From Deltaproteobacteria bacterium (GTDB taxonomy: Bacteria > Myxococcota_A > UBA9042 > DTJE01), in the NCBI GenBank assembly GCA_016875475.1, contig VGRB01000002.1, positions 1 to 44,995 on the forward strand: a stretch of 44,995 nt of DNA, written 5' to 3'. The notes beneath the pieces are model-generated. The model had not been told where the DNA came from, made no database searches, and worked only from the letters and a program-made list of their open reading frames with translations. The position numbers and the translations under genes were made by a program. Shown piece after piece: positions 5,637-23,064 of the stretch (the first letter of the stretch is position 1; each line of letters starts with the position of its first letter).

Positions 5637-9181
<3,545 letters not shown>

Positions 9182-13543: not shown

Positions 13544-14794
13544 GTGGACAAGCTCGCCCTGTTCGGTGGCACCAAGGTCCGAAGCACGCCGTTCACGCCG
13601 TGGCCCCAGTTCGACGACCGCGAGCGGAAGTACGTGATGGACGCGCTCGAGTCGCGGCGCTGGGGCGGCTACCCGTTCCCGAGCCCGCGCGCGCTCGAGT
13701 TCGGCCGGCGGTTCGCGGAGTACCACGGCGCGCGGTACGGCATCCCCGCGGCGAACGGGACCGTGACGCTCGAGATCGCGCTCCGCGCGGCGGGCATCAA
13801 GGCGGGGGACGAGGTGATCGTGCCCTGCTACACGTTCATGGCGACGGCCTCGTGCGCGGTCCACCTGAACGCGGTGCCGGTCTTCACGGACGTGGAGGCG
13901 CGGAGCTGGTGCATGGATCCCGCGGGCGTCGAGGCCGCGATCACCCCGAAGACGAAGGCCATCATCCCGGTCCACCTCGGGCACCAGATGACCGACATGG
14001 ACCGCATCCTCGAGATCGCGAAGAGGCACGGGCTCGTGGTCATCGAGGACTGCGCGCACTCGCACGGCGGCCAGTGGCGCGGCAAGGGCGTGGGCAGCAT
14101 GGGCGACTTCGGGTCGTTCAGCTTCCAGTCGTCCAAGCTGATGACGTCCGGCGAGGGCGGCGCGATCCTCTGCAACGACGACACGTACCGCGCCAAGGTC
14201 ATGTCGCTCGTCAACTGCGGCCGCAAGGAGCCGGGGTACGACGGCTTCGACGAGCAGCTCTTCGGGTGGAACTTCCGGCTGTCCGAGCTGCAGATCGCGG
14301 TGCTCATGGGCCAGATGGACCGGCTGGACGAGGTCACGCGCAAGCGCGCCGAGATGCTCGCGTACTTCCGCGAGACCCTGCACGCGAACGTCGCCGGCCT
14401 CCGCGTGCTCGACACCGACCCCCGCGTGACCCGGCAGCACGCGTACCAGACCCTGATGCGCTTCGATTCCGCTGCGTTCGCCGGGATCCACCGCGACCGC
14501 TTCCTCCAGGCGCTGGAGGCCGAGGGCGTGGACCTCGACGGGACGTTCTACGTGCCGCTGTACCAGATCCCGATCTTCAACGCGCGGTCGGACGAGTGGC
14601 CGGCCCTGCGCGAGCGGTACGGGGAGGGGATCCTGGAAGGCGGCCGGAGCATCTCGTGCCCGGTCGCGGAGAAGGCCGCGTACGAGGAGGCGGTGTGGAT
14701 GCACTACCCGCACCTGTCCGGCTCGCGGGCGGACGTGGACGACATCGTGACGGCGATCGCGAAGGTGCAGCGACACGCGGCGGAGCTTGCGTAG
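13544..14794 (+). CDS. DegT/DnrJ/EryC1/StrS-family PLP-dependent sugar/cyclitol aminotransferase
   Basis: 416 aa from GTG 13544, GGAGGA upstream. GDEVIVPCYTFMATA..., VIEDCAHSHGG..., FSFQSSKLMTSGEGG (PLP lysine context). Confidence 0.85.
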   Translation: MDKLALFGGTKVRSTPFTPWPQFDDRERKYVMDALESRRWGGYPFPSPRALEFGRRFAEYHGARYGIPAANGTVTLEIALRAAGIKAGDEVIVPCYTFMATASCAVHLNAVPVFTDVEARSWCMDPAGVEAAITPKTKAIIPVHLGHQMTDMDRILEIAKRHGLVVIEDCAHSHGGQWRGKGVGSMGDFGSFSFQSSKLMTSGEGGAILCNDDTYRAKVMSLVNCGRKEPGYDGFDEQLFGWNFRLSELQIAVLMGQMDRLDEVTRKRAEMLAYFRETLHANVAGLRVLDTDPRVTRQHAYQTLMRFDSAAFAGIHRDRFLQALEAEGVDLDGTFYVPLYQIPIFNARSDEWPALRERYGEGILEGGRSISCPVAEKAAYEEAVWMHYPHLSGSRADVDDIVTAIAKVQRHAAELA

Positions 14795-14842
14795 GGGCGA
14801 GCGGCGAGCTCGGGCTGGGGTTCGGGTACGGGAGAGGGGAGG
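14794..14842 (+). repeat. G-tract / GGG-YWC array filling the intercistronic spacer and merging with the RBS
   Basis: ggggcgagcggcgagctcgggctggggttcgggtacgggagaggggagg lies between TAG 14792-14794 and ATG 14848. Confidence 0.75.
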
Positions 14843-14847
14843 CCGTG

Positions 14848-15996
14848 ATGGACAGGATCGGGTTCGGCATCGTGGGATCGGGGTTCATCGCGAAGGTGCA
14901 CCTGGACTCGCTCCGGACCGTGCCGGGCGTCGAGGTCGTCGCGATCGCGGACGTGGACACGCTCCGGGGGCAGGCGTTCGCCGAGGAGAACGGGATCCCG
15001 AAGACCTATCCGTCCCACGCGGCCATGCTCCAGGACCCGGACGTGAACGCGGTCGTGATCGGCGTGCCGAACTGCTACCACGCGCGCATCGCGATGGACT
15101 GCTTCGCGGCGGGGCGCCACGTGGTGTGCGAGAAGCCGCTCGCGCTGACGCTCGAGGACGCGCGGGCCATGATCGCGGCCGCGCGGAAGGCGGGCGTGGT
15201 CCTCGCGTACGCCGAGGAGCTGTGCTTCATCCCGAAGTTCGTGAAGGCGAAGAAGCTGATGGAATCCGGGGGGATCGGCAGGCCCTACCTGGTGCGCCAG
15301 TGCGAGAAGCACGCGGGACCCTACTCGCCGTGGTTCTGGAAGGAGGAGGAGGCGGGCGGCGGGATCCTGATGGACATGGGCTGCCACGCGATCGAGTGCA
15401 TCCGCTGGGTGGTCGGCAAGAAGCGCGTGAAGTCCGTCCTCGCGCACATGGGCACGTACCTCCACGGCGAGATCACGCGCGAGGAGGACCACGTCCTGAT
15501 CGTGATGGAGTTCGAGGACGGCACCGTGGGCCAGGCGGAGTCGTCCTGGGCCTTGAAGGGCGGCATGGATTCGACGCTCGAGGTCTTCGGGACCGAGGGC
15601 GTCGTCTTTGCGGACCTCCTCAAGGGCATGGGACTGAAGGCGTTCTCCGAGAACGGGTTCCCGGACATGTGGGAGCCGTCCAAGGGCTGGGTGCACCCCG
15701 ACTTCGACTGGCTCTGGAACAACGGGTACCCGCAGGAGGACGCGCACTTCGTCGAGTGCATGCGGACCGGCGCGACGCCGATCGAGTCCGGCGAGGACGG
15801 CCTGGACGTGCTGGAGATCATGCTCGCGGCCTACCACAGCGCGGGGATCGGCCGGAAGGTGATGCTCCCGTTCCGGCCCGCCGGGGTGCGCGTGCCGGTC
15901 GACCTGTGGCTGAACCCGCGGCCGGACCTCGGCGCCGGGCCGATCCCGGAGGCGACCGCCCCCGCGTCCGCGGACGGGGCGACCGCGCCCGCCTGA
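14848..15996 (+). CDS. Gfo/Idh/MocA-family NAD(P)-dependent oxidoreductase
   Basis: 382 aa. IGFGIVGSGFIAKVHL, the VVCEKPLALTLEDA motif, and a C-terminal alpha/beta domain. Confidence 0.85.
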   Translation: MDRIGFGIVGSGFIAKVHLDSLRTVPGVEVVAIADVDTLRGQAFAEENGIPKTYPSHAAMLQDPDVNAVVIGVPNCYHARIAMDCFAAGRHVVCEKPLALTLEDARAMIAAARKAGVVLAYAEELCFIPKFVKAKKLMESGGIGRPYLVRQCEKHAGPYSPWFWKEEEAGGGILMDMGCHAIECIRWVVGKKRVKSVLAHMGTYLHGEITREEDHVLIVMEFEDGTVGQAESSWALKGGMDSTLEVFGTEGVVFADLLKGMGLKAFSENGFPDMWEPSKGWVHPDFDWLWNNGYPQEDAHFVECMRTGATPIESGEDGLDVLEIMLAAYHSAGIGRKVMLPFRPAGVRVPVDLWLNPRPDLGAGPIPEATAPASADGATAPA

Positions 15997-16096
15997 CCCC
16001 CCGCACGGGAGGGATCGAACGGACGACCTCGCCGCCGGGCTCGCCGTCGCGCTCGCCGCCGTCGCGTTCGCAGGCGGCTGGGCGTGGCCCGCCTGG

Positions 16097-18118
16097 GTGG
16101 CCGCGGTGCGCGCGGCCGGGCCGGACGCGCCGCCGCGGACCCGCCTCGCCGCCGCGATCGTGATCGCCTGGGCAGGCGGCTACGTCGCCTTCCGGGTGCT
16201 CGGCGCGCTGTCGCTGTTCCACCCGGTCGTCGCGCTGGCGATCGCGATGCCTCTTGCAGTCGCGACACTGCACCCGCGCATTCGCGGACCCGCGTGGCAG
16301 GCGCTCCGCGCCGACGCGCGCGCCGCGACCCACGCGGTCCGCGAGGCAGGCACCCCGCTCCGGGTCGCCATGGCGGCCACGAGCGCCATCGCCCTGGCAA
16401 GACTGGTCCGGGGCCTGTCCGCCCCGCCGCTCGCGTTCGACGCCCTGACCTACCACCTTGCCCGGGCCGCCACGTGGGTGCGGCACGGCGACCTGACCGC
16501 GTTCGCGGCCCCTGACGCCTGGCGCTACTGCGCGCGCTACCCCGACGCGGGCGACTCGCTGTGGGCCTGGGCCCTGCTGCCCGGCTCGAGCGACGCCATG
16601 GTTCCGCTCGCAAGCGCCGCGACGTGGGCCGCGACCCTTGCCGGGGGGTACGTGGCCGCGCGCGCGCTCGGCGGCACGCGACGCTCGTCCATCGCCACGG
16701 CCCTGTGCGTCGGCACCCTTCCCCCGGTCCTCCAGGCGATGACGGCCGCGTACGTGGACCTGCCCGCGCTCGCCCTGCTGCTGCTCGGGATCGGGCTTGC
16801 CGGACGCCACGCCGCCCTCGCGGTGCTCGCGCTCGCGCTGGCCGCTGCGACGCGTGCCGCCGGGCTGCCGTGGCTCGCGATCGGACTCGCTGCCCTCGCC
16901 CGACCGCGCAACGCGGTCGCGTGCGTCGCCGCCGCGGCGATCGCCCTGCCCACCTACCTCGACACGTGGATCGCGACCGGCAACCCGTTGTATCCGCTAC
17001 CGCTCTCCGTGGCGGGCGTCGAGGTCTTCGCGGGCAGCCCCGAGTTCCTCGCCGTCCACTCCGGCGCGGCCACCGGCATGGAGGCATCGGCCTGGACGGT
17101 GCTCGCGGCGCTGTTCGTCCCGACGGGCCTGCCTCACCTGAACCTCGGGCCGTCGATGCCGCTGCTCGCGGGCCTGGGCATCGCCGGCGCGCTCGGGGCG
17201 TGGCGCCCGGGGCGGCGGGCCGCCGTCGCCATCGCCGTGGCCGGGGCCGCGGTCACGGTCGCCGCCCAGTTGTCGGGGGAGGTCCGGGGCTTCCTGGTCG
17301 TGCCGTGGTGGCTCGACAAGGTGGGGCGCTTCCTCCTGCCCGCTGCCGCGGCGCTGATCGTTCTGGCAGCCCCGCTGGACGGCCGGATCGCGGCGGGCAT
17401 CCGCGTCGTCGCGATCGGGACCGGCCTGGCGCTCGGCCTGCCGCTCGGCTGGTCGGGCGCGGACGTGCCGGGCGTCCTGCTCGCGGCGGCGTGCCTGGTC
17501 CCGGCGGCGGTCCTGGTCGCGATCGGGCCGGCGCGGAGGTGGGTCCCGGCGGCCGTCGTCGTCGCGCTCGCCGTCGTGCCCGCGATCCGCTCGGCCTCGC
17601 GCTACCCGACGTGGGCCGCCGCGGCCAGGGGCGACGCATGGGACCTCCACCCCGCCAGCCGCAGTTCGCTGTCCGCGTGGCCGTCGTGGCAGGCGCTCGA
17701 CGGGCCGGAGGGGCGGCGGGTCGCCCTGACCGCGGGCTTCGACGGCGTCGGCCACAACTGGTACACATGGCCCTGGTTCGGGTCGCGCCTCCAGAACGAC
17801 GTCTTCCACGTGCCGGCCACGCGGGGGGGGGAGATCCCCGACTACGCGTTCAGCGACGCGACGGCTCCGAAGCTCGACCGCGACGCGTGGATCGAGCGGC
17901 TGCTCGCGACTCGCGCGGACGTCCTGGTTGCGCTCGACCCTCCCCCGCCCGAGCGGGCCTGGGCGGAGTCCATGCCGGAGGTCTTCCGTCCGCTGGCCGA
18001 GGGACCATGGGGGCGAGCGTGGTCCGTCGATCGGGCGGGGCGGGGCTCCGGCGGCTCGATCTCGAAGCCTGGAGGCCGCTTCGGACCGCCTCCGAAACCG
18101 CTTTCCTTGGGTCCGTGA
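16097..18118 (+). CDS. polytopic membrane protein, GT-C / ArnT-PMT-like glycosyltransferase candidate; true start probably upstream (about 16019)
   Basis: 673-aa ORF with 10 or more hydrophobic helices, an early loop motif PPLAFDALTYHLARA, and a soluble C-terminal ~200 aa. The frame stays open with very high GC3 for 100 nt upstream of GTG 16097. Confidence 0.55.
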   Translation: MAAVRAAGPDAPPRTRLAAAIVIAWAGGYVAFRVLGALSLFHPVVALAIAMPLAVATLHPRIRGPAWQALRADARAATHAVREAGTPLRVAMAATSAIALARLVRGLSAPPLAFDALTYHLARAATWVRHGDLTAFAAPDAWRYCARYPDAGDSLWAWALLPGSSDAMVPLASAATWAATLAGGYVAARALGGTRRSSIATALCVGTLPPVLQAMTAAYVDLPALALLLLGIGLAGRHAALAVLALALAAATRAAGLPWLAIGLAALARPRNAVACVAAAAIALPTYLDTWIATGNPLYPLPLSVAGVEVFAGSPEFLAVHSGAATGMEASAWTVLAALFVPTGLPHLNLGPSMPLLAGLGIAGALGAWRPGRRAAVAIAVAGAAVTVAAQLSGEVRGFLVVPWWLDKVGRFLLPAAAALIVLAAPLDGRIAAGIRVVAIGTGLALGLPLGWSGADVPGVLLAAACLVPAAVLVAIGPARRWVPAAVVVALAVVPAIRSASRYPTWAAAARGDAWDLHPASRSSLSAWPSWQALDGPEGRRVALTAGFDGVGHNWYTWPWFGSRLQNDVFHVPATRGGEIPDYAFSDATAPKLDRDAWIERLLATRADVLVALDPPPPERAWAESMPEVFRPLAEGPWGRAWSVDRAGRGSGGSISKPGGRFGPPPKPLSLGP

Positions 18119-18145: not shown

Positions 18146-18649
18146 GTGGGGAGTCCAATGGACCCGAGGAACCGGCCGGGCGGGCATTTCGGAAGGGCGC
18201 CCGGCGAGGAGCGGCACCAGGGCAAGCGCAAGTCCCGCACCATCGCCGCGCGACGCCTGAAGAACGTCGACCTGTCCGACGGCATCGAGATCGACGAGGA
18301 GCTGGAGAGGGAGCTGCAGGAGATGCGGCCCAAGCGCAGGTCCGACTGCCAGGGCGGGCCGAGGCCGTGCCCCTGGGTAAGTTGCAAGTACCACCTGTAC
18401 CTGGACATCAATCCCCGCACGGGTTCGATCAAGCTGAACTTCCCGGACGTGAAGCCCTGGGAGATGACCGACTCCTGCGTCCTGGACATCGCGGACCGCG
18501 GCCCGGTGACGCTCGAGGACGTTGGCCGCATCATGAACCTCACGCGCGAGCGCATCCGCCAGCTCGAGGCGTCCGCATCCGAGCGGATCCGGTCCACCCG
18601 CCTCGCGGTCGAGTACCGCACGTATTCGCTGGAGAAGCGGGACTCCTGA
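18146..18649 (+). CDS. small DNA-binding protein with a sigma70 region-4-like helix-turn-helix
   Basis: 167 aa (alternative ATG at 18158). [24 protein letters not shown] is a region 4.2-type HTH. It is preceded by [13 protein letters not shown] and a basic N-terminus. Confidence 0.55.
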
Positions 18650-18686: not shown

Positions 18687-19127
18687 TCACTTCGTCCTGC
18701 GGGGGCGACCCGGGCCGCGGCGCACCGGAGCATCCGCCTGGGCGGGCTTCGGAGCGGGCGTCGGCGCCGGCTTCGGAGCGGGCGTCGGCGCCGGCTTCGG
18801 GGGGGGAGGCGGCTCCGGCGCGGCGGTCGCCTCGCTGCGGGAGCGGGACAGCTCGTGGCGAAGTCGCGAGACCTCGGACTCCAGGTCGCGGACCACGTTG
18901 CGAAGCGAGGACAGCTCGTCGCGGGTGACCAGCTCGAGCGTGCGCGCCACGAGCTTGACCTGCGCCTCGATGTTCTCGCGCATGTCCGCCTGGAGGTTCA
19001 GCGCCTGGGTCAGGAGGTTCTGGACGCGCTCGTCCGCCAGCACGCGAAGCGCGATCGGCGAGAAGCGCTCCAGGACCGCCTTCATGACCACGTCGCGCCA
19101 GAGGTCGACCACCATGGGGGGCTCCAT
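18687..19127 (-). CDS. UbiK/PhaF-like coiled-coil protein with PAPKPA repeats and an AT-hook-like basic C-terminus
   Basis: 146 aa (alternative ATG at 19115 with GGAG upstream). [30 protein letters not shown] resembles UbiK/YqiC and the PhaF N-terminal coil. The tail reads [20 protein letters not shown]...[11 protein letters not shown]. Confidence 0.5.
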
Positions 19128-19191: not shown

Positions 19192-21783
19192 CTACACGCA
19201 GACGCCCTGGCAGTCCTGGGAGCAGCCCTCGGGGGAGCACATCGTGGGGCAGGCGATCATGCACTTCTGGCCGGCCGCGCACTCGGCGTCGCCCTTGCAG
19301 CCTTCGGACGGCACGGGGACGCACTCGAAGGCGACCACGCAGGACATCATGCAGGCGGGCTCGGCATAGACGCACGGGGGGCACTCGAACTTCTCGACGC
19401 AGACCTGGCCGGCCGGGCAGGCGACGCCGTCGCCGCAGGTCGCGGCCCTGGGCACGCACTGGCCGTAGCACTCGGCATCGACGCACGGCGGAGCGGGCAT
19501 GAACCCGGCGCCGGACGGGTCGGTCGGGGTGGCGCCGCCGCCGCACGGCGGGCAGAGCTTCTCGCACGCCCAGCCCTCGCCGCAGTCCGCGTCCGAGGAG
19601 CAGCCCTGCTGCTTCGGCACGCACTGGCCGAGGCACTCCTCCTTGCAGCCGCCGTTCGGGTCGCACACGCCCGTGCAGAAGACCTGGCAGACCTCGCCGG
19701 CCGCGCACGCGGTGTCGTCCATGCAGCCGCTCTGGGCGTCCGGGGTGCAGAGCCCGAGGTAGCCTTCGTTGCAGGGAAGGCACGCGGGCTTGGCGGCGCC
19801 GTCCGCGCGCGCGCCGCACTCCATCGTGCAGAACACCAGTTCGCAGTGGAAACCGGGGCCGCACTCGACGTCGGCGTTGCACCGGACCGGCTGGGTCGTC
19901 GGGATGCACTGGCCGAAGCAGCCGCCCATGCAGTCGGCGCCAGGGGCGCAATCGACGCACATCATCCGGCACTCGAACCCGGCCGGGCAGGGCTGGTCCG
20001 GGCCGCAGCCGGACTGCTTCGGGACGCACTCGCCGAAGCAGGCCTCGGTGCACCCGCCGCCCGCGGAGCAGCCGCCCATGCACTGGATCCGGCACTCCAT
20101 GCCCGGGTCGCACTGGGAGTCGTCGTAGCACCCCTCGACCGGCTTCGGGACGCACTCGCCGAGCCACCCGTCGTTGCACGGCGGCATCGGCCCGCACCCG
20201 CCCTTGCGGTCGGGGAAGCACATGTCGGAGTCGTACTGCGCGCAGTAGACCGGCTCGCACACGTAGCCGGCCGGGCAGTCGGTGCCGGCGTTGCACTTGC
20301 CGGGCACGATCACGTCCACGCACTGGCCGAAGCACTGGCCGGTGCACTCGGGCGCCCGGAAGGCCGGGTCCGCGCGGTCGGACGCGCCGCCGTGCGGGGT
20401 CGGGCACGCCTCGGTGCAGAGCCACTCGCAGCGCTGCCCCTTGCCGCAGTCCATGTCGGACGAGCAGCCCTTCTGGATCGGCACGCACTGGCCGAAGCAC
20501 TCCTCGAAGCAGCCGCCCATCGGCTCGCAGGCGCCCATGCAGACCGTCTCACACCGGTGGTCGGGGGGGCAGTCGGCGTCGGCGAGGCAGCCGTTGATGG
20601 GGTCGGTCACGCACTGGCCGATCCAGCCGTCGTTGCAGGGCAGGCAGCCGCCCTTGCCGTCCGGCCGGCACATCATGTCGCAGTAGACCGGCTCGCAGTG
20701 CTGGCCGGGGAGGCAGTCGCCGTCCGCGTTGCAGCCCTTCGGGGGCGGCGGGATCGGGACGCACTGGACCATGCACTCGCCGCACGGCGGGGCGATCTGC
20801 TCGGGGACCGCGGGGTCGGCCATGGCGCCCGCGGCCTTGTCGGCGGCCTCGCCGGCGCACGCCGAGCAGAGGACCTGGCACTCGGTCCCGGCCGGACACT
20901 TCACGACGTCGCAGGACGGCTCCGCGGGCACGCACTCGCCCCTGCACTCCTGCTTGCACGCCACGTCCGTCGCGCCTTCCGGCGCGAACGCGTCGCACCA
21001 GCCCATGCAGAACTGCTGGCAGCGCTTGCCGGGCCCGCAGTCCGCGTCGGACTTGCAGCCGTCCTTCGGCGCGGGCACGCACTGGCCCATCCTGCCGCCG
21101 TTGCAGGGCAGGCAGCCGCCGATGCCGTCGGGGGCGCACATCGCCGGGCACATGACCGGCTCGCAGACGAAGCCCTCGCCGCACTCCTTGTCGTAGTCGC
21201 AGCCCGGCGGGTCCGCCACGCACCGGCCGATGCACTCGCCGCCGAGGCACTTCGGGGGCGGCTCGTAGGCGGGCGCGCCGGCGGCGCGGTCGGAGCCGGC
21301 CTCGGCGGGCATCGTCGGGTCCGCGCACTTCGCGCACGCGACCTCGCAGTGGAAGCCCTTGCCGCACTCCGCATCCGACGTGCAGTCCGTCTTCGCGGGC
21401 ACGCACACGGCCTCGCACGCCACGTCGATGCACTTGTTCGTCGAGACGTCGCAGAGCCCGGTGCACAGCTCGAGGCACTCCTCGCCGGCCGCGCACTTGA
21501 CCGCGTCGCAGCCGGTCGGGGGCTTCGGCAGGCACTGGCCCGCGTGGCCGGCGTTGCACGGCAGGCACTTGCCGTTCGGGTCGGGCATGCACCTGTCCGC
21601 GCAGTAGACCGCGGAGCACTGGAAGTCGGAGCCGCAGTCCGTGTCCGAGTCGCAGTACTTCAGCTCGAACGTCCGGAGGCCGGGCTTCTCCTCGCCCCCT
21701 CCGCCCTCCGTCCCGCACGCCGCGAGACCGAGGGCGCCCGCACAGAGACACGCCGTCAGGAACTTCGTTGCCGTCGTCTTCAT
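19192..21783 (-). CDS. 863-aa cysteine-rich repeat lipoprotein (17 eight-Cys modules)
   Basis: ATG (cat 21781-21783) with GGAGAGGAGGGG upstream. Lipobox LGLAAC-G. Uninterrupted ORF with GC3-rich codons and regular Cys spacing throughout. Confidence 0.8.
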   Translation of the reverse strand: MKTTATKFLTACLCAGALGLAACGTEGGGGEEKPGLRTFELKYCDSDTDCGSDFQCSAVYCADRCMPDPNGKCLPCNAGHAGQCLPKPPTGCDAVKCAAGEECLELCTGLCDVSTNKCIDVACEAVCVPAKTDCTSDAECGKGFHCEVACAKCADPTMPAEAGSDRAAGAPAYEPPPKCLGGECIGRCVADPPGCDYDKECGEGFVCEPVMCPAMCAPDGIGGCLPCNGGRMGQCVPAPKDGCKSDADCGPGKRCQQFCMGWCDAFAPEGATDVACKQECRGECVPAEPSCDVVKCPAGTECQVLCSACAGEAADKAAGAMADPAVPEQIAPPCGECMVQCVPIPPPPKGCNADGDCLPGQHCEPVYCDMMCRPDGKGGCLPCNDGWIGQCVTDPINGCLADADCPPDHRCETVCMGACEPMGGCFEECFGQCVPIQKGCSSDMDCGKGQRCEWLCTEACPTPHGGASDRADPAFRAPECTGQCFGQCVDVIVPGKCNAGTDCPAGYVCEPVYCAQYDSDMCFPDRKGGCGPMPPCNDGWLGECVPKPVEGCYDDSQCDPGMECRIQCMGGCSAGGGCTEACFGECVPKQSGCGPDQPCPAGFECRMMCVDCAPGADCMGGCFGQCIPTTQPVRCNADVECGPGFHCELVFCTMECGARADGAAKPACLPCNEGYLGLCTPDAQSGCMDDTACAAGEVCQVFCTGVCDPNGGCKEECLGQCVPKQQGCSSDADCGEGWACEKLCPPCGGGATPTDPSGAGFMPAPPCVDAECYGQCVPRAATCGDGVACPAGQVCVEKFECPPCVYAEPACMMSCVVAFECVPVPSEGCKGDAECAAGQKCMIACPTMCSPEGCSQDCQGVCV

Positions 21784-21835
21784 CGTCCCCTCCTCTCCAA
21801 TCCGCCCGGACATCCCCGGACTGCCTTCTTCCGTT

Positions 21836-22014: not shown

Positions 22015-23064
22015 ATGGCCAGGGAGTTGAGGATCGGGATCAACGGGTTCGGGCGCATCGGGCGCCTGGTCGCGCGCGCGGCGATCGCGCGGGGGCACAA
22101 GGTCCTGGCGCTGAACGACCTGGTCGACCCGAAGGACTTCGCCAAGGGAGTGATGTTCAACGCGAAGCTGTTCCAGTGGGACTCGACGCACGGGCGGTGG
22201 CCGGGGAAGGTCGAGGCGACGGACACGCAGATCGTGGTGGACGGCCAGGGCATCGACGTGCACTCGGCCAGGTCGCCCGCCGAGATCCCGTGGGACCGGT
22301 ACGACCTCGACTTCGTCGTCGAGTCCACGGGCGTGTTCCGCAAGCGCGAGCAGATCGAGGAGCACCTGAAGCGCAACGTGAAGAAGGCGCTGCTGACCGT
22401 GCCGCCGAAGGACTCGGTCGACGCGCTGATCGTGCTCGGCGTGAACGACGCGGCCCTGAAGGCCGAGCACCGGCTGATCTCGAACGCCTCGTGCACCACC
22501 AACTGCCTCGCGCCCGTCGTGAAGGTGCTCCACGAGGCGTTCGGCGTGGTGCGCGGCATGATGACGACCGTGCACGCCTACACGAACGACCAGCGCATCC
22601 TGGACCAGATCCACAAGGAGGACCTCCGGCGCGCCCGCAGCGCCGCGGTCAACCTGATCCCGACCAGCACCGGCGCCGCGAAGACGATCGGCAAGATCAT
22701 CCCGGAGCTGGAAGGACGGCTGGACGGCATCTCGATCCGCGCGCCCGTGCAGGACGGGTCCATCGTCGACTTCGTGTGCGAGCTGGAGCGCATCCAGGTC
22801 CGCGACCCGAAGGAGATGAAGAAGGAGATCAACGCGGCGATGAAGGCCGCGGCCGAGGGCGCGCTCGAGGGCATCCTCGAGTACTCCGAGGACGAGCTGG
22901 TCTCGACCGACATCATCCACAACCCCCACTCGTCGATCTTCGATTCCAGGCAGACCATGGTGATGCCGAACAGCCGCATGGTGAAGGTCCTGGCCTGGTA
23001 CGACAACGAGTGGGGCTACTCGAGCCGCTGCGTGGACCTGATGGAGCGTGCCGCGGCGCTGTAG
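22015..23064 (+). CDS. gap: type I glyceraldehyde-3-phosphate dehydrogenase
   Basis: 349 aa. INGFGRIGR, active site SNASCTTNCLAP, and WYDNEWGYS. Confidence 0.95.
   Translation: MARELRIGINGFGRIGRLVARAAIARGHKVLALNDLVDPKDFAKGVMFNAKLFQWDSTHGRWPGKVEATDTQIVVDGQGIDVHSARSPAEIPWDRYDLDFVVESTGVFRKREQIEEHLKRNVKKALLTVPPKDSVDALIVLGVNDAALKAEHRLISNASCTTNCLAPVVKVLHEAFGVVRGMMTTVHAYTNDQRILDQIHKEDLRRARSAAVNLIPTSTGAAKTIGKIIPELEGRLDGISIRAPVQDGSIVDFVCELERIQVRDPKEMKKEINAAMKAAAEGALEGILEYSEDELVSTDIIHNPHSSIFDSRQTMVMPNSRMVKVLAWYDNEWGYSSRCVDLMERAAAL

Follow-up and report, generated by a model that had tools for sequence, protein, structure and literature searches.

The window analysed here, positions 1 to 44,995 of contig VGRB01000002.1 (assembly GCA_016875475.1, Deltaproteobacteria bacterium, Myxococcota_A; 44,995 nucleotides (nt)), encodes on its reverse strand a cysteine-rich lipoprotein of 863 amino acids (aa). 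Behind its N-terminal lipobox, the protein is a continuous chain of 17 modules with eight Cys each. On sequence comparison, the best description is of a new subfamily within the TIGR04201 superfamily, the repeat type of the TraA stalk; this subfamily is very regular, lipobox-anchored, and made up of repeats alone. With roughly even confidence, we regard it as a lipid-anchored acidic rod of 17 disulfide-stiffened modules of the TraA-stalk type, which would serve as a spacer, a fibril, or a scaffold at the envelope or surface. To our knowledge, the only bacterial role known for Cys-rich repeats of this kind is that of the rigid stalk which they are presumed to form in TraA, a kin-recognition receptor of myxobacteria, and we know of no structure or disulfide map of these repeats.

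Module architecture of the lipoprotein

The translation contains 139 Cys (16.1% of 863 aa), together with 13% Gly, 10.5% Ala, and 10% Pro. Three Cys (C12, C14, and C23) lie within the signal peptide and the lipobox (LGLAAC23), and the residue at +2 is Gly, not Lys. The remaining 136 Cys form 17 consecutive modules with exactly eight Cys in each. Within a module, the Cys are numbered C1 to C8, and the spacing is given as the number of residues between successive Cys. Three module types alternate. A modules (modules 1, 4, 7, 10, and 13) have the Cys spacing 5,5,4,3,7,2,7, from which modules 10 and 13 deviate. B modules (modules 2, 5, 8, 11, 14, and 17) have the spacing 4-5,5,3,3,4-12,3-4,3. C modules (modules 3, 6, 9, 12, and 15) have the spacing 4-5,5,3,2-3,5-25,2-4,3 and contain a Pro/Ala-rich loop of 5-25 residues between C5 and C6. 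Module 16 is divergent, and its spacing (5,5,5,2,6,3,5) is the commonest eight-Cys spacing in the wider superfamily.

A hidden Markov model (HMM) of the triplet delimited five full A-B-C triplets (aa 36-188, 189-341, 342-488, 489-626, and 627-776), followed by a two-module tail. The chain ends with ...CQGVCV, one residue past the last Cys. The mature protein has 841 aa, a mass of ~86 kDa, and an isoelectric point of about 4.2; acidic residues outnumber basic residues (119 vs 50), and the net charge is about -69. CC and CxC motifs are absent from the protein (0 each), and CxxC motifs occur ten times.

Most of this architecture had been proposed in an earlier, sequence-only reading of the same DNA. 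That reading had described an 863-aa lipoprotein with ~139 Cys (~16%), a linker of ~20 aa after the lipobox, and 17 eight-Cys modules in an A-B-C super-repeat that recurs about five times. The composition agreed with the translation, the linker corresponds to the Gly-rich aa 24-43, and the module number and the super-repeat were recovered by the Cys count and the triplet HMM. The lipoprotein assignment gained from the homologues, since 13/13 N-terminally complete homologues had a lipobox-like Cys within aa 16-25 and a Gly-rich tether behind it, and Lys was never at +2. The general spacing formula proposed earlier (C-x4-5-C-x5-C-x3-4-C-x3-C-x5-30-C-x2-4-C-x3-7-C) was mostly right; its third gap had to be extended to 5, and its fourth gap is 2-3, once 7.

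Relationship to TIGR04201 and TraA

A Pfam scan of the protein gave no match even at E<=10. In the NCBIfam scan, in which matches were listed to E<=10, the only match was TIGR04201 (Myxo_Cys_RPT), with 14 bits (E 0.041) over nine stretches; the curated cutoff of this model is 25 bits. The close homologues P0001 and P0003 scored 17.6 and 20 bits on the same model. The profile comparison was far clearer. The eight-Cys module profile of the family aligned with the modules of TIGR04201-positive proteins at 98.5% in hhalign (E 3.3e-15, 52/56 columns). The family profile also matched P0022 at E 7e-42, a protein with 45 bits on TIGR04201. Among 85 representatives of the superfamily, 63 matched TIGR04201 at E<=0.001, 29 had the C-terminal TIGR04289 'eight-cysteine-cluster' domain, and one had a MYXO-CTERM tag. 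On these alignments, the module belongs to the myxobacterial Cys-rich repeat TIGR04201, of which it is a divergent version. All 17 modules open with C-x4-5-C-x5-C and have a Gly two or three residues past C2, and an acidic residue lies between C1 and C2 in 15/17 modules.

The earlier view that no named domain could be assigned was thus not upheld. The HMM search that it had recommended returned nothing from Pfam and only a sub-threshold score for TIGR04201, and the name came from the hhalign comparison of module profiles and the matches within the superfamily. Its remark that the module is not the CxxGxxxxExCDDGN repeat proved correct: TIGR02232 was absent from the NCBIfam scan at E<=10.

TIGR04201, which is confined to Myxococcales/Myxococcota, is a tandem repeat of ~22 aa with three invariant and two less conserved Cys in the repeat logo. 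The Myxococcus xanthus protein TraA, a polymorphic receptor that mediates outer-membrane exchange, supplied the Cys-rich region on which the model was built; a rigid stalk presenting a PA14-like head was proposed for this region (PMC3325183). In AlphaFold models, the region forms a shaft of beta-hairpins with disulfides as stiffeners (PMC12045341). The present protein and TraA (MXAN_6895) share the repeat type, with the core C-x-x-D-x-D-C-x-x-G-x-x-C followed by further Cys. Both are of Myxococcota lineage, carry the repeat in tandem copies, and are exported and lipid-anchored to the envelope, and in both the repeat region is predicted to form an extended shaft of disulfide-stiffened beta-hairpins. 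Besides its score under the TIGR04201 cutoff, four differences set the present protein apart. It lacks the PA14-like variable head: no Pfam or NCBIfam domain match was found, the modules begin at aa 44, and no globular region was predicted. It has an N-terminal lipobox instead of the MYXO-CTERM tag (no TIGR03901 match at E<=10). Its gene has no adjacent traB, which encodes an outer-membrane beta-barrel with an OmpA domain. Finally, it has 17 regular eight-Cys modules in an A-B-C super-repeat, whereas TraA has nine irregular repeats.

Homologues and conservation

In a search of 5.8 billion proteins, 14 homologues were close, with 41-57% identity and E values of 1e-95 to 1e-274. They all came from metagenomes or metagenome-assembled genomes (MAGs); three were labelled 'hypothetical protein' and the others were unnamed, so that none carries a functional name. 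Distant matches had E values of 1e-19 to 1e-4, and some were named 'Cys-rich repeat protein' or 'eight-cysteine-cluster-containing protein'; these two names, both on distant members, were the only ones returned by the cluster look-up. In 1.84 billion representative proteins, the family profile had 237 matches at E<=1e-3, and 13 of them reached E<=1e-30; only about seven of the 237 were close relatives. The family is rare. A contig scan of genomes gave no match with the single protein as the query, and with the alignment as the query it gave only two MAG loci, labelled Deltaproteobacteria and Anaeromyxobacter. A literature search found no papers on this subfamily beyond those on TraA.

The close homologues are collinear with the protein, and nearly all their Cys are invariant. 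The triplet HMM found the same triplet organisation in every homologue, and the length differences among close homologues correspond to whole triplets gained or lost. Triplets at the same position were 49-62% identical between orthologues, usually above the 40-54% identity among triplets within the protein. The array is therefore old, and each of its positions is individually constrained. The best conserved peptide of the family is the A-module motif PDGxGGCLPCNDGxxGxC; across 51 triplets, the A-module residues G37, P41, N43, G45, and G48 (triplet numbering) were invariant or nearly so.

One close homologue, P0014, has a different end. By inspection, a Kazal-type-like segment (aa ~420-478) stands in place of modules 16-17, and P0014 would be a Cys-rich rod fused to a protease-inhibitor-like domain.

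Predicted fold and disulfide pairing

Triplet 3 (aa 342-489) was modelled with AlphaFold2 from an alignment of 51 triplets. The mean predicted local distance difference test (pLDDT) was 82.7, and the predicted template modelling score (pTM) was 0.54. In the model, C1 and C2 of each module are separated by a short turn, and a single beta-hairpin follows, with strands that carry C3(-C4-C5) and (C6-C7-)C8. In the hairpin of the B module, the pairs that face each other by register are C5/C6, C4/C7, and C3/C8. Disorder is predicted for the long loop between C5 and C6 of the C module. The model of the whole protein (12 sequences) was poor, with a pLDDT of 49.7 and a pTM of 0.22, and was used only for the repeated secondary-structure pattern; the hairpin pattern recurred in it 17 times, without any globular domain. 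Modelling of an A-B-C triplet had been suggested by the sequence-only reading, and a beta-hairpin per module is what it returned.

Cys counts across the superfamily were predominantly even. In 177 superfamily proteins, modules with 4, 6, 8, and 10 Cys numbered 189, 283, 561, and 80, and modules with 5, 7, and 9 Cys numbered 92, 59, and 34. The commonest four-Cys spacing was 5,5,4, and six- and eight-Cys spacings were often palindromic (e.g. 3,4,3 and 3,3,5,3,3). Among the homologues, Cys had been lost in pairs: B5+B6 in P0009 and P0012/13, C5+C6 in P0009, and B1+B3 in P0012. In module 16 of P0002 and P0009, C4-C7 were lost together, and C1, C2, C3, and C8 remained. These four-Cys remnants and the one co-loss of C1 and C3 give indirect support to the C1-C3/C2-C4 connectivity over a beta-hairpin of DPY and CREMP modules.

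Even counts, paired loss, and predicted hairpins make four disulfides per module, as the earlier reading had proposed, the best-supported interpretation. With an even Cys count in every module, no free thiol would be left for covalent multimerisation. From the strand register and the co-losses, we infer the connectivity C1-C3, C2-C8, C4-C7, and C5-C6 as the scheme in best accord with the data. A pure ladder, with C1-C2 and C3-C8, is the other arrangement considered. A pure DPY-type pairing (C1-C3, C2-C4, C5-C6, and C7-C8) was rejected; a single predicted strand holds both C7 and C8, at a distance of four residues, and C4-C7 are missing together from module 16 of P0002 and P0009. A nested architecture of a four-Cys core plus hairpin rungs is proposed, which would link the modules with 4, 6, 8, and 10 Cys.

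Comparison with other Cys-rich systems

Besides TraA, comparable systems include the 'Cys-rich repeat' and 'eight-cysteine-cluster' proteins of Myxococcota MAGs, which combine TIGR04201 with a C-terminal TIGR04289 heavy_Cys domain (also PF27854, DUF7107). These are related to the present protein at the level of the module (E 1e-19 to 7e-42), belong to the same phylum, have a similar Cys content (10-17%), and consist mostly of eight-Cys modules. Unlike the present protein, with its lipobox and strict A-B-C periodicity, the distant Myxococcota homologues inspected have a non-lipobox N-terminus and irregular module lengths. The eight-cysteine-cluster domain (TIGR04289/TIGR04292, 52 aa) stands at the C-terminus of the distant homologues P0016, P0017, P0029, and P0034, and the present protein gave no match to it at E<=10. 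Three other distant homologues of the TIGR04201 type (P0019, P0020, and P0023) have inserted 'CGNGxDDDxDGLVDExC' segments, which may be the MopE-type putative metal-binding motif PF11617. PF11617 itself was listed for P0035 and matched 1/85 superfamily representatives.

Two-disulfide structural modules of animals offer a possible likeness, namely the DPY module of Drosophila DUMPY (PDB 1OIG) and CREMP of the avian eggshell membrane (PDB 9PGB). Both form long tandem arrays of tiny disulfide-stapled hairpins in structural fibres. CREMP and DPY have a two-disulfide core in which an N-terminal loop passes over a hairpin (bioRxiv 10.1101/2025.09.16.676614). The DPY spacing Cx5Cx5Cx4C is that of C1-C4 in A modules and also the commonest four-Cys spacing of the bacterial superfamily; the CREMP spacing is Cx4Cx5Cx8C. 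From C1 to C4, the spacing is 5,5,4 in A modules and 5,5,3 in B and C modules, and four more Cys follow. The modules of the present protein differ from both in having eight Cys instead of four, in being bacterial and lipid-anchored, and in giving no significant sequence or fold match, whether to Pfam PF21164 or in the PDB, and the likeness may be convergent. In the PDB sequence search, CREMP (9pgb_A) was the sole match of the whole protein (E 0.064, not usable), and a spider toxin was the sole match of the triplet profile (E 0.15, not usable). A Foldseek search of the PDB with the triplet model gave a best E of 2.9, which is noise, in a method that is weak on extended strings of tiny domains. 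The earlier statement that the modules are not EGF-like was correct in that no match was significant; it was too strong in that C1-C4 of the A module have the EGF-related DPY spacing. Superfamily modules that start with C-x5-C-x5-C form a series of 4, 6, 8, and 10 Cys, and the four-Cys form with DPY spacing may reflect either convergence with, or deep kinship to, EGF-derived modules.

The authors of the TraA study noted that Cys-rich repeats of Dictyostelium resemble TIGR04201 (PMC3325183). These repeats (PF00526, Dicty_CTDC; spore-coat proteins, PsiA/DicA1) are likewise extracellular, tandem, and Cys-rich, and come from a social soil organism. They differ in their eukaryotic origin and in their spacing, and the present protein has no Pfam match.

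Proposed function and alternatives

The homologues, the AlphaFold2 model, the paired loss of Cys, and the shaft of TraA together make a rod-like surface or envelope role, which the sequence-only reading had also raised, the best-supported explanation. After Sec export and lipidation, four intramodule disulfides would be oxidised in each module. Each module would thereby gain an EGF/DPY/CREMP-like two-disulfide core, and two more disulfides between the strands would extend and staple the hairpin. Short linkers that contain Pro (VPxxxxG, 6-9 residues) would join the modules into a stiff, protease-resistant rod without free thiols, and in the C modules, the disordered Pro/Ala stretch from C5 to C6 would reach up to 25 residues. 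As a head domain is absent, the rod probably does the work by itself, and it may act as a spacer at the surface or envelope, a fibril, or a scaffold. The A-module motif would be its likeliest contact with a ligand or cation. In lipoproteins of M. xanthus, Lys at +2 directs to the inner membrane and Ala at +7 to the matrix (PMC3222651); under this sorting rule, the present protein would by default be located in the outer membrane.

Several points weigh against the acidic rod. Surface exposure depends on a sorting rule taken from a distant relative. The pTM values of the triplet and whole-protein models (0.54 and 0.22) leave rigidity between modules unsupported. The pairing is deduced from the strand register and a handful of co-losses, in which C1+C3 is a single case, and the ladder with C1-C2 and C3-C8 stays compatible with the data. 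The Foldseek and PDB sequence searches returned no analogue, and the protein itself is under the TIGR04201 cutoff (14 vs 25 bits) and lacks a Pfam match. In addition, no conserved neighbour was found beside the homologues in six other loci; therefore, the neighbourhood is not conserved and offers no operon or functional clue.

A multivalent binder, i.e. an adhesin or matrix organiser, overlaps with the acidic rod and is given a small but real chance. Its conserved acidic C-x-x-D-x-D-C loops and the A-module PDGxGGCLPCNDG at five regular sites would bind Ca2+, a polysaccharide, a mineral, or a partner protein. The near-invariance of the non-Cys residues of the A module over 51 triplets, the rank of its motif as the best conserved peptide of the family, the net charge of about -69, and the three-module periodicity kept in all orthologues are consistent with binding, and TraA-type proteins act in cell-cell adhesion. 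However, the Pfam and NCBIfam scans found no known binding domain, no partner gene is conserved nearby, and the conserved Gly, Asn, Asp, and Pro could merely form the turns that the fold needs.

The protein could also be an array of knotted domains resembling protease inhibitors or toxins, which would shield the surface or inhibit enzymes of prey or competitors. Weak Pfam matches in the superfamily point in this direction (Dickkopf_N in 23/85 representatives, Antistasin in 3, WAP in 1, Kazal in 1, and carboxypeptidase inhibitor in 1), as does the Kazal-like end of P0014, seen by inspection. Such matches are, however, typical cross-hits among Cys-rich profiles. The protein itself has no such Pfam match even at E<=10, the PDB sequence and fold searches were empty, and no reactive-site loop is conserved; we consider an inhibitor array improbable.

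Slightly less probable still is a periplasmic or surface buffer of thiols or metals, which the sequence-only reading had offered as its alternative. In such a metallothionein-like protein, the 136 Cys would be reduced or redox-cycling and would bind soft metals or oxidants. The 16% Cys in a strongly acidic protein, the ten CxxC motifs, and the MopE-type putative metal-binding PF11617 in some distant superfamily members are in keeping with this idea. Metallothioneins are small proteins of the cytoplasm with many CC and CxC motifs and with metal bound through thiolates. The present protein shares their very high Cys content but is exported, has 86 kDa, and bears the signature of paired Cys; CC and CxC, which dominate in metallothioneins, are absent. 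Its lipoprotein signal leads to an oxidising compartment, each module has exactly eight Cys, even counts prevail across the superfamily, and Cys are lost in pairs. The confidently predicted beta-hairpins place Cys opposite each other across strands, and no metal-resistance or redox genes are conserved beside the gene. The buffer is accordingly disfavoured.

The repeat type had been named and distant relatives had been annotated, so the module is not a new kind of domain. New are the subfamily itself, which is made of repeats only and lipid-anchored at its N-terminus, the conserved A-B-C period of strict eight-Cys modules, and the nested core-and-rung architecture proposed above. A broader and rather doubtful idea makes the protein a 'stalk-only' relative of TraA, lipid-anchored and without a head, which would be sufficient in itself as a disulfide-laddered nanorod and be a bacterial counterpart of the DUMPY and CREMP fibre modules of animals. 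If so, the rods would cover the cell or assemble into fibrils of the envelope, and they could fix the distance from the outer membrane to neighbouring cells or to a substrate. The three-module period would then display five regular binding sites and five disordered loops. TIGR04201-type repeats would be an independent structural material of Myxococcota, beyond their use as a receptor spacer. The findings hint at an independent function of these rods in uncultured Myxococcota. No purer or more regular example than this family was found here: it has 17 modules of strictly eight Cys in a conserved period of three, nothing else in the protein, and a simple N-terminal lipid anchor; therefore, it is a good experimental model for the repeat fold, the disulfide connectivity, and the mechanics. 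It may also provide a robust modular scaffold for protein engineering.

The gene and its start codon

The features of the gene and its product are listed in Table 1. The mechanical open reading frame (ORF) is longer at the 5' side and reaches 24483, because this DNA, with 72% guanine plus cytosine (GC), has no in-frame stop there. Three lines of evidence place the start at the ATG at 21783: the ribosome-binding site GGAGAGGAGG upstream, the matching N-termini of 13 homologues, and the base composition of the codons. In this frame, the GC fractions by codon position are 0.63/0.59/0.98 (third position (GC3), 0.978), and TGC accounts for 135/139 Cys codons. Tandem Repeats Finder detected no tandem repeat at the DNA level. 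Since triplets within the protein are also only 40-54% identical, the array is old and diverged and is neither a recent expansion nor an assembly artefact. The identical protein is present on an independent Logan contig. The gene is real.

That the ORF is a chance product of high-GC DNA or an artefact of repeat assembly has practically no chance: high-GC DNA does yield many long spurious ORFs here in all six frames, but the GC3 of the frame, the same protein letter for letter on the Logan contig, the 14 homologues with intact ORFs and invariant Cys, and the lack of a DNA-level repeat able to mislead an assembler refute it.

Table 1. Positions of the gene, its signals, and the segments of its product (window coordinates, except for the last row).
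Feature	Position	Strand	Remarks
Coding sequence of the Cys-rich lipoprotein	19192..21783	-	863 aa plus stop
Shine-Dalgarno-like GGAGAGGAGG	21789..21798	-	5-14 nt 5' of the ATG; read from the upstream sequence
Lipoprotein signal peptide, lipobox L-A-A-C	21715..21783	-	aa 1-23; Cys23 is the lipidated +1 residue
Gly/Glu-rich tether from the lipid anchor to the first module	21655..21714	-	aa 24-43
Triplet 1, modules 1 (A), 2 (B), and 3 (C)	21220..21654	-	aa 44-188; triplet HMM 174 bits
Triplet 2, modules 4-6	20761..21219	-	aa 189-341; Cys count and triplet HMM
Triplet 3, modules 7-9	20320..20760	-	aa 342-488; segment modelled with AlphaFold2
Triplet 4, modules 10-12	19906..20319	-	aa 489-626; short C-type loop in module 12
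Triplet 5, modules 13-15	19456..19905	-	aa 627-776; Cys count and triplet HMM
C-terminal modules 16 and 17 (B-like)	19195..19455	-	aa 777-863; no C-terminal sorting tag after them
Stop codon	19192..19194	-	
Paired strands in the triplet model	A: 20-24/48-52; B: 68-79/83-94; C: 111-115/143-147		residues of the model

Gene neighbourhood

Rfam and tRNA scans of the window gave no matches. The lipoprotein gene stands by itself, and its upstream neighbour is a divergent gene for GAPDH (22015-23064, forward strand). This GAPDH is at most 79% identical to any protein, and its nearest named relative (77%) comes from a 'Myxococcota bacterium' MAG; the source of the window is an uncultured member of the Myxococcota. 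P0008, the closest homologue of the lipoprotein (57%), and P0181, the closest GAPDH (78%), share the longest-contig value of 6560 bp; the GAPDH adjacency may have been kept in the nearest relative, though lost in more distant ones.

Downstream of the lipoprotein lie a BMFP-like coiled-coil gene and then a gene for a small Sigma70_r4 protein. The first, directly downstream (18687-19127, reverse strand), encodes a 146-aa protein with a BMFP/UbiK-like coiled coil (24 bits vs the cutoff of 37 bits) and a C-terminal (P-A-P-x-P-A-P-K) repeat tail, and it has its own promoter-like site at 19171-19143. The second (18146-18649, forward strand) encodes a protein of 167 aa, in which nothing but a helix-turn-helix of Sigma-70 region 4 (PF04545, E 2.6e-7) could be recognised. 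A Cys-containing CPWVSCKYH precedes the helix-turn-helix, and the product is a predicted DNA-binding protein of the stand-alone sigma-r4-like kind.

Two further ORFs on the forward strand gave no Pfam match. The ORF at 16097-18118 encodes 673 aa, rich in Ala and Leu and polytopic-membrane-like, and the ORF at 14787-16163 encodes 458 aa. Both lie just downstream of genes for a DegT/DnrJ aminotransferase and a family-4 glycosyl hydrolase, and this may be an uncharacterised glycan-modification cluster.

At the locus of homologue P0005 (L004), a weak Dicty_CTDC (PF00526) protein and a small Thioredoxin_3 gene were seen at 454-1659 and 6937-7191, an arrangement that is not conserved in the other loci.

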